DNA of 64,000 nt from a phage: sequence record PZ452594.1; one strand, 5' to 3'. The position numbers and the translations under genes were made by a program. Positions 30,506 through 39,933 of the stretch are shown here, in pieces. Numbering within the stretch: position 1 is the first letter of the stretch; each line of letters begins with the position of its first letter. The notes beneath the pieces were generated by a model. The model ran no database searches. It saw only the letters and a program-made list of their open reading frames with translations, and was not told the DNA's origin.

Positions 30506-30979
30506 TTATTTGAACGATTTAACGTACTGAATAGAACCTTTACTATTTACGAAAGCGATTTTACCATTTTTATTATACATGGTAGCAGTACGCTGATAGC
30601 CATAAGTTTGTTTACCAGATTGATAACCAACTAATGCGAAATTATCTTCGCCCATTTTATTCTGTTTAGCGCGAATGCGTTCATGACCATGTGCCATAAG
30701 AACCTTAGCATCACCAGTTGCAATGGATCTACGAGTTTTTTCATCTTCAACTGTATTAACAAAGTCGTCAAATGAATCAAATTTAGCATGAGATTTATTA
30801 TACAGTTTTCCATCTACTGCATAATTATATCCCTGTACATCCATCTCAACTTCTGTACCATCATCCAATACAGCAGTGATTTTTTGACCTTTTTTAAATT
30901 TCAAAAGATCAGTAAAAGATTCAGCAATAATTTGAGAATTAATAGCTGCTTCAGTGATAAATTCTTGATATGTTTTCAT
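30506..30979 (-). CDS. Internal (capsid-packaged) protein with capsid-targeting leader
   Basis: N-terminus MKTYQEFITEA matches T4 internal-protein CTS; adjacent to denV. Confidence 0.65.
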   Translation of the reverse strand: MKTYQEFITEAAINSQIIAESFTDLLKFKKGQKITAVLDDGTEVEMDVQGYNYAVDGKLYNKSHAKFDSFDDFVNTVEDEKTRRSIATGDAKVLMAHGHERIRAKQNKMGEDNFALVGYQSGKQTYGYQRTATMYNKNGKIAFVNSKGSIQYVKSFK

Positions 30980-30988
30980 ATGTTTCCT

Positions 30989-31405
30989 TTAAATGTAAAT
31001 ATTTTTACCGTAATACTTATACCAATGTGGTTTCATTAAAATTTTTTCATCAAGTCGTTGTTGACTCAATTTAATAGCTGATTTGCATGGATTATAATCA
31101 TTTTTCCATTCTACTGGAATATCGCTGATGTCAGGAACTTCAGTATCTTTTATACTGAACCCGCGTTTTAAGCATTCCGTTATAATGTCCGATTGACGCT
31201 TTCGCAAAAATTCTAACTTATCGTAAAAGAAAGTAACATGACCAGAACCTAAAATAAATTTAGAAGATATTTTAAAATCTTTAACGCGCTTACCGTTTGC
31301 CACATGCTTACGAACTATACCAAAAACACGCGGCAATTCACGGTATTCTGCGATTAAATGTTGATCAGCAAGTTCAGATACTAAAGTCAAATTAATACGA
31401 GTCAT
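30989..31405 (-). CDS. denV: Endonuclease V (pyrimidine-dimer DNA glycosylase)
   Basis: 138 aa; [17 protein letters not shown]...WYKYYGK as in T4 DenV. Confidence 0.9.
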
Positions 31406-31430
31406 TTTATCCCTCCAAGTAACTGTGAAT

Positions 31431-31460
31431 ATACTATCACAATTCTAGGAAAAAGTAAAC
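31431..31460 (-). promoter_or_regulatory. T4-type early promoter upstream of denV
   Basis: GTTTAC-N18-TAGTAT on minus strand. Confidence 0.5.
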
Positions 31461-31464
31461 AACT

Positions 31465-31959
31465 TTATAGATTTTTATACGCGTCCCAAGTGCCAGTTCT
31501 AAACGTTGCAATGACTCGTTTTGCGCGATTAGGTGTTTGATTATACCATCTACTTTTAGCTAAGTTAACTGCTGCTTCATCCCAGCGTTTTTGTTGAAGC
31601 ATACGCAAAGAGTTAGTGAATCCAGCTACGCCAGTTTCTCCCATTTGGAAAACCATATTAATCAATGCACAGCGACGAACAGCATCAAGAGAATCATAAA
31701 CTGGTTTTAATTTAGCATTTCTCAGAATTCCACGAACAGCAGCATCAACATCCTGATTAAAGAGTTTTTCAGCCTCATCTTTTGTAATTACACCATTGCA
31801 ATTACGCCCAATAGCTTTATCTAATTCAGATTTAGCAACACTTAGTGATGGACTTTTAGTAAGCAAATGACCAATGCCAATAGTGTAATAGCCTTCTGTG
31901 TCTTTATAGATTTTAAGTCTAAGACCTTCATCTATACGTAACATTTCAAATATATTCAT
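31465..31959 (-). CDS. e: Endolysin (T4 lysozyme)
   Basis: 164 aa, near-identical to T4 lysozyme ([33 protein letters not shown]...). Confidence 0.97.
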
Positions 31960-31985
31960 AATACCTCCTAAGTATTTATAGAAGG

Positions 31986-31993
31986 TATTTATA
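31986..31993 (-). promoter_or_regulatory. Late promoter (TATAAATA) for gene e; second copy at 31973-31980
   Basis: Minus-strand TATAAATA 27 nt upstream of e start. Confidence 0.5.
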
Positions 31994-31996
31994 AAA

Positions 31997-32452
31997 TTAA
32001 AAGAGGTTGTTCATTATTCGGTAAAGTGAAGGACCCATCACATATTGCCACTGAGTACGAGGAATAAGAGCAAAAGCATCCATCTCTGGAATCATAACGC
32101 CATCTTTATTTTCAAAATAAGACTCGCAATGGCAATTTCTGAACATCTCATGCTCTACTGGAATCGTATAATAAAATAACTGTAAGTCTTTATTACTAGA
32201 ATATTTAAATACACCTAGGTCTTCTAGAAGGTCTGGATTATAATTGCTAAAACCGGTCTCTTCTAAGCATTCTCTTTTTGCAGCTTCCAGTGCATTCAAA
32301 TCAGAACTTTCTACACGCCCCTTTGGAATATCCCAGCGATGTGCCAACATTCCAGGCTTACGAGAACCAGTAACCCGACCCATAAATAAATCTTTATCTT
32401 CTGTCATAAAAATAATACCAGCTGATAATGTTTTCATTTTAATTTCCTGCAT
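31997..32452 (-). CDS. nudE: Nudix hydrolase
   Basis: Nudix box [23 protein letters not shown]. Confidence 0.8.
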
Positions 32453-38129: not shown

Positions 38130-38202
38130 CTGGGAATAAAGGACTCGAACCTTTGCATCCTGGAATCAAAATCCAGTGCCTTACCAACTTGGCTAATTCC
38201 CA
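38130..38202 (-). tRNA. tRNA-Gln (anticodon UUG)
   Basis: Anticodon stem-loop CTGGA-TTTTGAT-TCCAG; abuts tRNA-Leu. Confidence 0.85.
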
Positions 38203-38299
38203 ATTATTAACAAAGGCTCTCAAACAAGAACCCTTGATGATAGAGGGTATTAATCAGTGCGGTATGAGTTAATAATAACAAATAATTCTTAAAGCATAT

Positions 38300-38593
38300 T
38301 TACCATTTATGATGATACATACTTACGATGCATTCAAGACCCAAAGAATTCTTGAAAATATCATATTCAAGAGGACCTTTTTCTGTTTCGATAAAGAAAT
38401 CAAAATTTACTGTATTAAATTTACGGTCTTCCTTTACTAATTTAACTTGAGAAGATGAACGGTCAATGTAAACCTTTTCAACTTCAAAACATGTTAAAAT
38501 GCCATAATCATCGATCAAGGCTTTAGCTGCTTCTTGATCATATTTATATCCATTTTCAATGGATGATACTTTTGCATAAAGAATCATTATCAC
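38300..38593 (-). CDS. Hypothetical protein (97 aa)
   Basis: ORF in variable region between tRNAs and ipI. Confidence 0.45.
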   Translation of the reverse strand: MIMILYAKVSSIENGYKYDQEAAKALIDDYGILTCFEVEKVYIDRSSSQVKLVKEDRKFNTVNFDFFIETEKGPLEYDIFKNSLGLECIVSMYHHKW

Positions 38594-38970
38594 ACTCCGT
38601 AGTCTATCTTGACCAATCTACCTTTGTAGTAGCCAAAGTTCTTTGGAAAGGCATCATACTCAAAGAAATCACGGTCAAGCGTTCTACATTCATCACCATC
38701 AACATCATTATAGAGCTTTTGCAAATCAGATTTAAAAAGCTCCTTATCCTCAACTGGCTCTGCTTTGTGCATCACAACCATGAGACCAAATCTGTTTGAG
38801 TATGCTATTGGGCATAGGTGCTTGTTATCATACCCCTTCCACTGACCTTCTGTAAGATTGCTGAGCATACCCTGCACGAAGTGTTTCCATGTCTTGGGGA
38901 TAGGGAACTTAATAGCATACTTACGTGTTAGTAGTACCCATCTGGTTCCACCCGATTTAATTAATTTCAT
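38590..38970 (-). CDS. Hypothetical protein (126 aa)
   Basis: ORF, 4-nt overlap with neighbour. Confidence 0.45.
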   Translation of the reverse strand: MKLIKSGGTRWVLLTRKYAIKFPIPKTWKHFVQGMLSNLTEGQWKGYDNKHLCPIAYSNRFGLMVVMHKAEPVEDKELFKSDLQKLYNDVDGDECRTLDRDFFEYDAFPKNFGYYKGRLVKIDYGV

Positions 38971-39044
38971 AGTCTCAGCTACCTCAATATTAATTTAAGC
39001 AATATCATTCCTATAAGGTAATACTTTAGCATAAAGAATCATTG

Positions 39045-39455
39045 TCAGCCTCTATCAACGATAGCATGAGTATGGGCATTTACGATTTGCCACCAGTCGA
39101 AACGATTGGAACCATAATCTGGTTTATTTTCATTTTCTTTAATGATATCACGCAACTTATCTTCTGTTTCAGCATACGCAATTAAATCATCATATCCACC
39201 GCAAGGATAATAATTATCACCTGCGAATAAAAGAAAATTTACCTTAGATGGATTTACGTAATAATGGTCTTTAGGATATTTAGTTCCTCTCCAATCAGTT
39301 ACTTCAACATAACGGTAAGAAAATCCATTTTTACTTTCAATCCAACTCCACGCTTCAAAAGGAGTATTAAAAACTTTATCAGGTATTAAATTACCTTCAA
39401 AATGAGAAGGATTTGCATAATCCCCGGCATAAACATAATATTCGTTAATACTCAT
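39045..39455 (-). CDS. Hypothetical protein (136 aa)
   Basis: ORF. Confidence 0.45.
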   Translation of the reverse strand: MSINEYYVYAGDYANPSHFEGNLIPDKVFNTPFEAWSWIESKNGFSYRYVEVTDWRGTKYPKDHYYVNPSKVNFLLFAGDNYYPCGGYDDLIAYAETEDKLRDIIKENENKPDYGSNRFDWWQIVNAHTHAIVDRG

Positions 39456-39641
39456 TTATTCACCTTTAGAAATTTTATCCATAACGATAGCGATTAAACC
39501 AATTAAAAATGCTACTACAAGCGAAAACACATTTTCTGCTGTAGTTAATAATCCGCATATAAATCCAACAAACATTGAAAAACTAAAAGCGGAAGCAGAA
39601 ATTGCAATAGCAACATTTCGAATTAATTCACAACGTTTCAT
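39456..39641 (-). CDS. Small membrane protein (61 aa)
   Basis: Two hydrophobic helices; early promoter upstream. Confidence 0.4.
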   Translation of the reverse strand: MKRCELIRNVAIAISASAFSFSMFVGFICGLLTTAENVFSLVVAFLIGLIAIVMDKISKGE

Positions 39642-39660
39642 TTTATTCTCCTCGGTAGTT

Positions 39661-39690
39661 GATAGGGTAATAGTATCACTACCCTATCTA
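39661..39690 (-). promoter_or_regulatory. T4-type early promoter
   Basis: GTTTAC-N18-TACTAT; 23-bp block TGATAGGGTAATAGTATCACTAC repeated at 39959-39981. Confidence 0.5.
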
Positions 39691-39699
39691 AAAGTAAAC

Positions 39700-39933
39700 T
39701 TATTTTTTACGAAAAATTGATTTATATTTATCAGCCCATTTCTCAATGACTTTTGCCGGGCCATAGATAACAAAGTAATCGCCAAACTCTTCACCACCGA
39801 GTTGACCGAAATCATCTAATGCATCACGAAGAACTCCATGAGGCATTTCACCCATTTTATCTTTCTTGCCAGTGTAAATAAACTCAACTTTTACATCAGC
39901 AGTTTCAGCAATAAATTCTTGATACGTTTTCAT
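39700..39933 (-). CDS. ipI: Internal protein I-like capsid-packaged protein (variant)
   Basis: N-terminus MKTYQEFIAE (exact T4 CTS) from ATG at 39933; mature part unlike T4 IPI as recalled. Confidence 0.65.
   Translation of the reverse strand: MKTYQEFIAETADVKVEFIYTGKKDKMGEMPHGVLRDALDDFGQLGGEEFGDYFVIYGPAKVIEKWADKYKSIFRKK

Follow-up and report, generated by a model that had tools for sequence, protein, structure and literature searches.

Three candidate internal head-protein cassettes, Ip6, Ip4 and a phrog_2280 protein, in a T4-like phage

The DNA analyzed in this work was a stretch of 64,000 nucleotides (nt) from a phage (sequence record PZ452594.1; "the window" hereafter), identified as a Tequatrovirus (T4-like). 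The part under study, positions 30506 to 39933, very probably carries three cassettes encoding internal (injected) head proteins: that of Ip6 occupies the ipI locus, that of Ip4 the vs.8 end of the e locus, and the candidate third, of the phrog_2280 family, the gap between e.8 and rnaC. The genes of interest were all located on the minus strand, and they are listed here, as are their neighbors further below, in the direction of transcription:

39700-39933, minus strand, ip6, leader-bearing open reading frame (ORF) of 77 amino acids (aa)
35901-36362, minus strand, leader-bearing ORF of 153 aa (phrog_2280)
30506-30979, minus strand, ip4, leader-bearing ORF of 157 aa

The initial annotation of this region had described the first of these genes as an "IPI-like variant" and the last as a "single IP", a wording which overlooked the ORF at 35901-36362, the third leader-bearing ORF inside the span that it reported.

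All three ORFs began with MKTY..F, so that position 4 was aromatic and position 7 a phenylalanine. The pattern MK[TS][YF]x(2-3)F gave 3 matches in the window translated in six frames, all of them at the head of an ORF of 77 aa or longer, and had a mean of 0.185 occurrences in 200 shuffles, none of them heading an ORF of at least 60 aa; the internal-protein leader was not a chance match. In T4, targeting to the prohead core and packaging require residues 4 and 7 of the leader, processing by gp21 past the motif L/I-X-E depends on residues 8 and 10 (PMC9026906), and the mature internal proteins are injected along with the DNA (PMC3012670). Ip6 and Ip4 (Y4, F7, I8 and E10 in both) followed these T4 leader rules, with the gp21 motif (L/I)-x-E present as I8-A-E10 in Ip6 and as I8-T-E10 and I18-A-E20 in Ip4; the cut of Ip6 was predicted after I8-A9-E10. 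The exact MKTYQEFIAE leader noticed in the initial annotation was indeed present in the ipI-position gene, but it is the leader of T4 IPII and IPIII, and T4 IPI starts with MKTFKEFTSTTTPVSTITE, a leader of 19 aa. A literature search for virion proteomics or injection data for Ip6, Ip4 and the phrog_2280 protein returned none.

The mode of action proposed for these proteins was extrapolated from T4 biology. The N-terminal leader (Tyr4, Phe7) would target the internal protein to the scaffolding core of the prohead, the gp21 protease would then cut past (L/I)-x-Glu, and the mature protein would be retained in the head with the DNA and injected together with it. Once injected, it would block a modification-dependent (type IV) restriction enzyme before the glucosyl-hydroxymethylcytosine DNA is cut.

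The 77-aa gene, whose product consists of the leader MKTYQEFIAE and a mature part of 67 aa (isoelectric point, pI, ~6.5), is, on the similarities found, a member of the already named family Ip6. It spanned phrog_8111 ("internal virion protein") end to end (residues 1-77 of 77, E 3.9e-51), was 100% identical to the proteins of RB18 and slur07 and 78% identical to IpVI of Yersinia phage PST, and had relatives labeled ip6 or ipVI in VR20, PST and JK1; the PST record originates from the laboratory which named the ip genes. Ip6 was present in 251 deposited phage genomes: the allele of the window was found at an identity of at least 99% in 19 records, and a further 149, with the Bas37-type allele among them, were 80-90% identical. 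A GTG at 39951 was rejected as the start of ip6, the true start being the ATG at 39933, located 8 nt after GGAG.

The initial annotation correctly reported that the mature part of this protein does not match T4 IPI: BLASTP aligned residues 1-14 only, and hhalign aligned only the first 15 residues, with a probability of 7.9%. The designation "IPI-like variant" was not upheld, the gene being assigned to a separately named family with a mature part unrelated to IPI. For the ORFs compared with T4 IPI, IPII and IPIII, an alignment that the initial annotation had proposed as a check, BLASTP similarity was confined to the first 10-19 residues, and the mature regions did not appear to be diverged T4 orthologs; judged by these alignments, Ip6 and Ip4 resemble the three T4 proteins in the leader only. 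The gene might nevertheless be thought a diverged ortholog of T4 ipI, drifted in sequence but unchanged in fold and GmrSD target, as both genes share the slot between 57B and trna.4, the type of leader and a similar mature size (67 vs. 76 aa). This explanation is highly improbable: the leader alone aligned, the homology of ip6 to T4 DNA ended exactly past the leader codons, the Ip6 family profile matched no chain of the PDB below E 0.7 and hence did not recover IPI*, Ip6 lies beside a different internal protein at one locus in PST, a48 and Bas37, and the Ip6 ortholog Bas37_0260 acts on McrBC. When the PDB was searched with profiles of each of the three families (Ip6, Ip4 and phrog_2280), nothing scored below E 0.5. 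T4 IPI*, a GmrSD inhibitor with a nuclear magnetic resonance structure, shares with Ip6 the slot and the logic of leader, gp21 cleavage and injection, but not any detectable similarity of the mature part, nor the length of the leader (19 aa in IPI, 10 aa in Ip6), nor the likely target (GmrSD for IPI*, McrBC for Ip6).

This target was deduced from the phage Bas37 (KarlGJung, MZ501089). A 2025 preprint (bioRxiv 10.1101/2025.11.20.689424) places the gene bas37_0260 "at the ipI locus" and reports that E. coli K-12 hosts make it necessary only if they have McrBC; its loss leads to sensitivity to McrBC, and it is not required against GmrSD. It is a 234-bp gene between Ip5 and trna.4, and its product was 83% identical (64/77) to Ip6 of the window. 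Since it occupies the Ip6 slot and has this degree of identity, the reported McrBC inhibitor is Ip6, and the gene of the window its ortholog; most likely, therefore, Ip6 of the window blocks McrBC. Bas37_0260 and PST IpVI resembled Ip6 of the window in their slot beside trna.4, their length of 77 aa, their identity (78-83%), their leader and their I-A-E site; they differed in context, Ip6 being the sole internal protein at this locus in the window and following Ip5 in PST, a48 and Bas37. The authors of the HIDEN-SEQ study did not connect Bas37_0260 with the Ip6 name. The gain from this comparison is that the McrBC inhibitor reported in 2025 without a family name is the classical Ip6, which gives Ip6-carrying phages, such as that of the window, a concrete and testable counter-defence target.

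The 157-aa gene, on the same type of evidence, is the already catalogued Ip4. Its product had the leader MKTYQEFITE (the protein begins MKTYQEFITEA) and a mature part with a pI of ~9.1; it matched Pfam DUF7412 (PF24183) over residues 1-157 of a 158-position profile (E 5.7e-96; 319.4 bits with a cut-off of 27) and phrog_3155 (E 6e-102). It was 100% identical to the proteins of T2 (IpIV), RB18 and RB33 and 99% identical to Ip4 of phage K3 (Q38388); copies were labeled Ip4 in RB51 and ime09, and the UniRef name was "IpIV internal head protein". There were two conserved [LI]xE sites, with E10 and E20 invariant. Ip4 was found at an identity of at least 99% in 291 records, and phages of Klebsiella, Salmonella and Serratia carried it at ~70% identity; 69 columns were invariant, and this strong conservation argues for a selected, specific role. 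The hhalign comparison with T4 IPIII gave a probability of 64% over a gapped stretch of 59 columns, and that with T4 IPII gave 91%, with identity over the first 13 residues only and weak signal in the remaining columns. T4 IPII and IPIII share with the proteins of the window the 5' untranslated region and a leader of 10 aa that is identical or nearly so, but their mature regions are apparently unrelated, the hhalign signal being confined to the leader or weak.

Several observations weighed against the reading of Ip6 and Ip4 as injected inhibitors of restriction enzymes. The 13 of 77 residues which differ between Ip6 of the window and Bas37_0260 were clustered at residues 41-70, and since the specificity of internal proteins is narrow, the McrBC target may not transfer. 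For ip4-10, no reproducible inhibition of 15 GmrSD groups was obtained (PMC12373910). The predicted structure of Ip4 was of moderate confidence (predicted local distance difference test, pLDDT, 69), and fold searches with it gave no informative match. Finally, a scan of the window for the late-promoter motif TATAAATA gave none directly upstream of ip6 or ip4, so the late expression of these two genes is proposed from read-through and T4 precedent; the nearest late-type signals for e-denV-ip4 were the following:

31973-31993, minus strand, two TATAAATA late-promoter motifs upstream of e

The count of TATAAATA across the window was not above chance, and the role of these two motifs in e-denV-ip4 expression is accordingly only putative.

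The lack of GmrSD inhibition by ip4-10 would also be expected if Ip4, and perhaps this allele of Ip6 too, had no anti-defence role and were a basic or neutral filler for DNA packing or ejection subject to neutral turnover. Ip4 is basic, as are the T4 internal proteins, Bas37 is devoid of Ip4, and T4 is devoid of both Ip4 and Ip6, all of which would suit such a filler. It was considered improbable, because every internal protein of known function (4/4: Ip1, Ip2, Ip3 and Bas37_0260) is an inhibitor of type IV restriction enzymes, and because Ip4 is maintained at an identity of at least 99% in 291 genomes and at ~70% across phages of other host genera. The T4 proteins Ip1, Ip2 and Ip3 are specific, each blocking its own GmrSD type IV enzyme and giving no cross-protection (PMC12373910). 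The suggestion, made in the initial annotation, that these variants may counter a restriction enzyme other than that of T4 IPI was supported for the ipI-position gene by experiments on its 83%-identical positional ortholog, which is needed against McrBC and not against GmrSD, but was not for Ip4.

The positions of the cassettes were compared among T-even phages. According to the T4 record, ipI lies between 57B and trna.4. The content of this locus was ipI in T4, Ip5 in RB51, Ip5 and another internal protein in T2, Ip5 followed by Ip6 in PST, a48 and Bas37, and Ip6 alone in the window; the direct junction between 57B and Ip6 (221-bp probe) was covered in 107 records. In the e locus, the T4 order denV-ipII-ipIII-e given in the initial annotation agreed with the T4 record, and the 157-aa internal protein was, as it had stated, on the regB side of denV, beginning 9 nt past the denV stop, on the vs.8/regB side. 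The order of the window, vs.8-Ip4-denV-e, was that of RB51 and a48, and the denV-Ip4 junction (211-bp probe) was covered in 165 records; other layouts were e-Ip4 without denV (T2), e-ipIII-ipIV without denV (PST), e-denV without any internal protein (Bas37) and e-ipIII-ipII-denV (T4). Ip4 was the last cassette before vs.8 in the 5 compared genomes which carry it (5/5), and the interval between e and Ip4 contained nothing in T2, ipIII in PST, and denV in the window, RB51 and a48. Ip4 of K3 (Q38388), T2 and RB51 was 99-100% identical to that of the window from end to end, shared its 3' flank ahead of vs.8, and differed in its upstream neighbor: denV in the window and RB51, e in T2 and ipIII in PST. 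These comparisons identify the arrangement as a common natural variant of a known polymorphism.

The DNA bounding the cassettes contained the following elements:

39959-39999, minus strand, early promoter/stem-loop upstream of ip6 (GTTTACA...GTGATACTATTACCC), hairpin of -17.7 kcal/mol, z -4.2
39680-39900, minus strand, Ip6-specific DNA without T4 counterpart (blastn of the window against T4)
39659-39699, minus strand, second promoter/stem-loop copy, past ip6 and ahead of trna.4, hairpin of -16.4 kcal/mol, z -3.6
31406-31464, minus strand, early promoter/stem-loop between e and denV, hairpin z -2.9
30948-31007, minus strand, conserved internal-protein 5' region, comprising the end of denV (final codons and stop), AGGAAACAT and the leader-coding sequence

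The two copies flanking ip6 formed a 41-nt direct repeat (80% identical, 24 nt exact), each with a sigma-70-like early promoter (TTTACA-17-TACTAT in 39959-39999) and a hairpin overlapping the -10 region, and the element TTTCACAAAGTTGTTTACA...GTGATACTATTACC...ATCAA was found at every ipI-locus junction in six phages (window, T4, PST, RB51, T2 and a48). In blastn against T4, homology ended at 39679 and resumed at 39901, within the leader codons of ip6, which places the leader in the conserved flank. The 5' region at 30948-31007 shared 93.6-95% identity with its counterparts at T4 ipII and ipIII, the final denV codons and AGGAAACAT matched the 5' region of T4 ipII, and the DNA past the ip4 stop (GGGAACAACCTGGACCTCATGATT) was that found past the T4 denV stop. 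The possibility that Ip4 had "moved" across denV was rejected, since these flanks indicate that Ip4 stays last before vs.8, without a jump across denV, and that it is the interval between e and Ip4 which varies. The element at 31406-31464 was conserved past e in the other phages too; it was followed by denV here, but by an internal-protein gene in T4, T2 and PST. The denV allele was itself divergent, with ~79% DNA identity to T4 denV (31116-31409) vs. 93-98% for the flanking genes, and its last five codons and stop fell within the conserved internal-protein 5' region.

The gene order very probably arose when the conserved flanks which bound each cassette, made up of promoter/stem-loop and leader-coding DNA, recombined with one another. 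The flanks of the window fit the model of promoter-early stem-loop (PeSL) elements (Arbiol 2010; Comeau 2014), in which a sigma-70-type early promoter and a stem-loop likewise lie on either side of variable ORFs; what differs at the internal-protein loci of the window is that hairpin and -10 region overlap and that conservation of the flank reaches into the leader codons. The internal-protein loci differed from those of T4, and the hypervariability evoked in the initial annotation is in accordance with those passages of PMC12373910, PMC4122927 and PMC3012670 which cite Repoila 1994. Ip4, Ip6, their loci and the shuffling of their cassettes are already known, and both genes are annotated in many genomes. 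Repoila et al. in 1994 reportedly described Ip4 and Ip6, these loci and the cassette shuffling, and are said to have reported ten ORFs with an 11-aa leader and promoter/stem-loop flanks of ~70 bp, a description which the window fits.

Ip6 and Ip4 were located within the two classical polymorphic loci (57B-trna.4 and e-vs.8), bounded by conserved promoter/stem-loop DNA. The third ORF, 35901-36362 (minus strand, 153 aa), a member of phrog_2280, lay outside both. It began MKTYAQFLMTEA, with the leader MKTYAQFLMTE and a mature part of ~142 aa (pI 9.4), and was contained in an insertion with respect to T4, for which the following features were found:

36406-36429, minus strand, intrinsic terminator hairpin upstream of the insertion, corresponding to the T4 post-rnaC terminator, -20.3 kcal/mol
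36391-36398, minus strand, late-promoter motif TATAAATA, 29 nt ahead of the ATG and formed at the 5' insertion junction
35896-36395, minus strand, 500-bp insertion with respect to T4 (blastn), carrying the phrog_2280 ORF
35870-35893, minus strand, duplicated terminator hairpin downstream of the insertion, -17.6 kcal/mol, z -6.5

The insertion sits at the post-rnaC terminator of T4, which is duplicated at both ends, between e.8 and rnaC, and the annotation of RB51 at the same insertion reads "flanked by 34 bp imperfect direct repeat". This cassette was bounded by duplicated intrinsic terminators instead of PeSL-type flanks. The loops of the two flanking terminators were reverse-complementary (TTTC vs. 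GAAA), as they were in a48 but not in RB51, and may reflect inversion of the hairpin during recombination. RB51, Bas37 and the Klebsiella phage Mineola (Jiaodavirus) carried the TATAAATA motif at the equivalent site, as did a48 with 7/8 positions.

The family was present in 512 records, and T4, T2 and PST were devoid of it. The leaders of the relatives ended in a canonical site (LNE, LTE or LAE): MKSYAQFLNEVVLNE|A, MKTYNEFLNESVLTE|A, MKSYAEFLTE|Q, MKFKEFLAE|A (Mineola), MLKFNEFLAE|G and MISFNEFVDGNLITE|S. Bas37 (KarlGJung, 7029-8191) carried two diverged phrog_2280 genes in tandem, bas37_0243, whose product matched phrog_2280 and began MKTYAEFLTE|A, and bas37_0244; each had its own leader and terminator, indicating that the site varies in copy number too. 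The structure predicted for the phrog_2280 protein (pLDDT 73) consisted of a three-helix domain, a linker rich in proline and lysine, and a helical hairpin, and a tblastn search with the distant relative P0085 matched only the C-terminal halves of Klebsiella phage proteins. A literature search for virion proteomics which might cover phrog_2280 found nothing relevant.

The evidence tipped slightly in favor of the gap between e.8 and rnaC being an unrecognised third polymorphic internal-protein locus of the Tevenvirinae, harboring one or two phrog_2280 genes whose products would be targeted to the prohead by a leader of the type MK(T/S)Y..FL...E, cut by gp21 and injected as counter-defence proteins. 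The alternative, that the ORF encodes a late cytoplasmic protein with an N-terminus merely resembling the leader, was judged rather unlikely, although several features would accommodate it: the location outside the two classical loci; the presence of Met rather than Leu or Ile three residues before the putative cut (M9-T-E11 in the allele of the window); a conserved domain shared by the relatives besides the leader, unlike in the classical internal proteins; and the database names checked for the relatives, none of which was that of an internal protein and all of which were "hypothetical" or "uncharacterized", except for an automatic label of "isopenicillin N synthase-like dioxygenase" on bas37_0243-type proteins. 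A cytoplasmic protein would not account so readily for a leader pattern retained, with its LNE, LTE or LAE ending, in relatives less than 40% identical and in phages of other genera, nor for the outcome of a profile scan of 1.84 billion representatives, which recovered only 11 proteins, of which the full-length ones bear the leader. The late-promoter motif at the same place in 4/5 phages checked (7/8 positions in a48), the basic mature part (as in the T4 internal proteins) and the presence or absence of the gene as a cassette also argue for an injected internal protein. The family, so far named hypothetical, bears the hallmarks of one and is a candidate extra family. If this assignment is true, the combination of a conserved three-helix N-terminal domain with a variable C-terminal domain would be new among internal proteins; its confirmation would add to the injected anti-defence proteins known so far and bear on host-range prediction for therapeutic T4-like phages.

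The 11.7 kb around the ip loci matched 1176 phage records, chiefly Tequatrovirus genomes of Escherichia, Shigella and Yersinia, with best matches 92-97% identical. The genes neighboring the three cassettes were the following:

40709-41473, minus strand, gene 1
40467-40709, minus strand, 57A
40012-40467, minus strand, 57B
39456-39641, minus strand, trna.4
39045-39455, minus strand, trna.3
38590-38970, minus strand, extra ORF of 126 aa
38300-38593, minus strand, trna.2
36746-38202, minus strand, nine tRNAs and a segB-like ORF
31997-35672, minus strand, e.8 to nudE
31465-31959, minus strand, e
30989-31405, minus strand, denV, 138 aa
29825-30421, minus strand, vs.8-like gene

Other differences from T4 were found among these neighbors. 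The 126-aa ORF at 38590-38970 (phrog_4301, function unknown) was inserted between trna.2 and trna.3 and had no T4 counterpart, the homology to T4 being broken over 38593-39020. The tRNA cluster was unlike that of T4, with an additional tRNA-Tyr at 37538-37624, and the tRNA-Met (CAT) called at 37634-37710 is probably a T4-type tRNA-Ile. The overlap of the segB-like ORF (36826-37599, GTG start, a mechanical call) with this tRNA-Tyr makes a true start further inside the ORF probable. The e.7 slot (34942-35340) contained an ORF of 132 aa unrelated to T4 e.7 (BLASTP E 2.9), and this slot, occupied by an ORF of 172 aa in RB51 and by one of 58 aa in PST, a48 and Bas37, appeared to be another replaceable slot. 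The vs.8-like protein (29825-30421, 198 aa) differed at its N-terminus from T4 Vs.8 (219 aa) and had weak P-loop/terminase-like profile matches (AAA_14, E 0.008; phrog_2, 4e-6).

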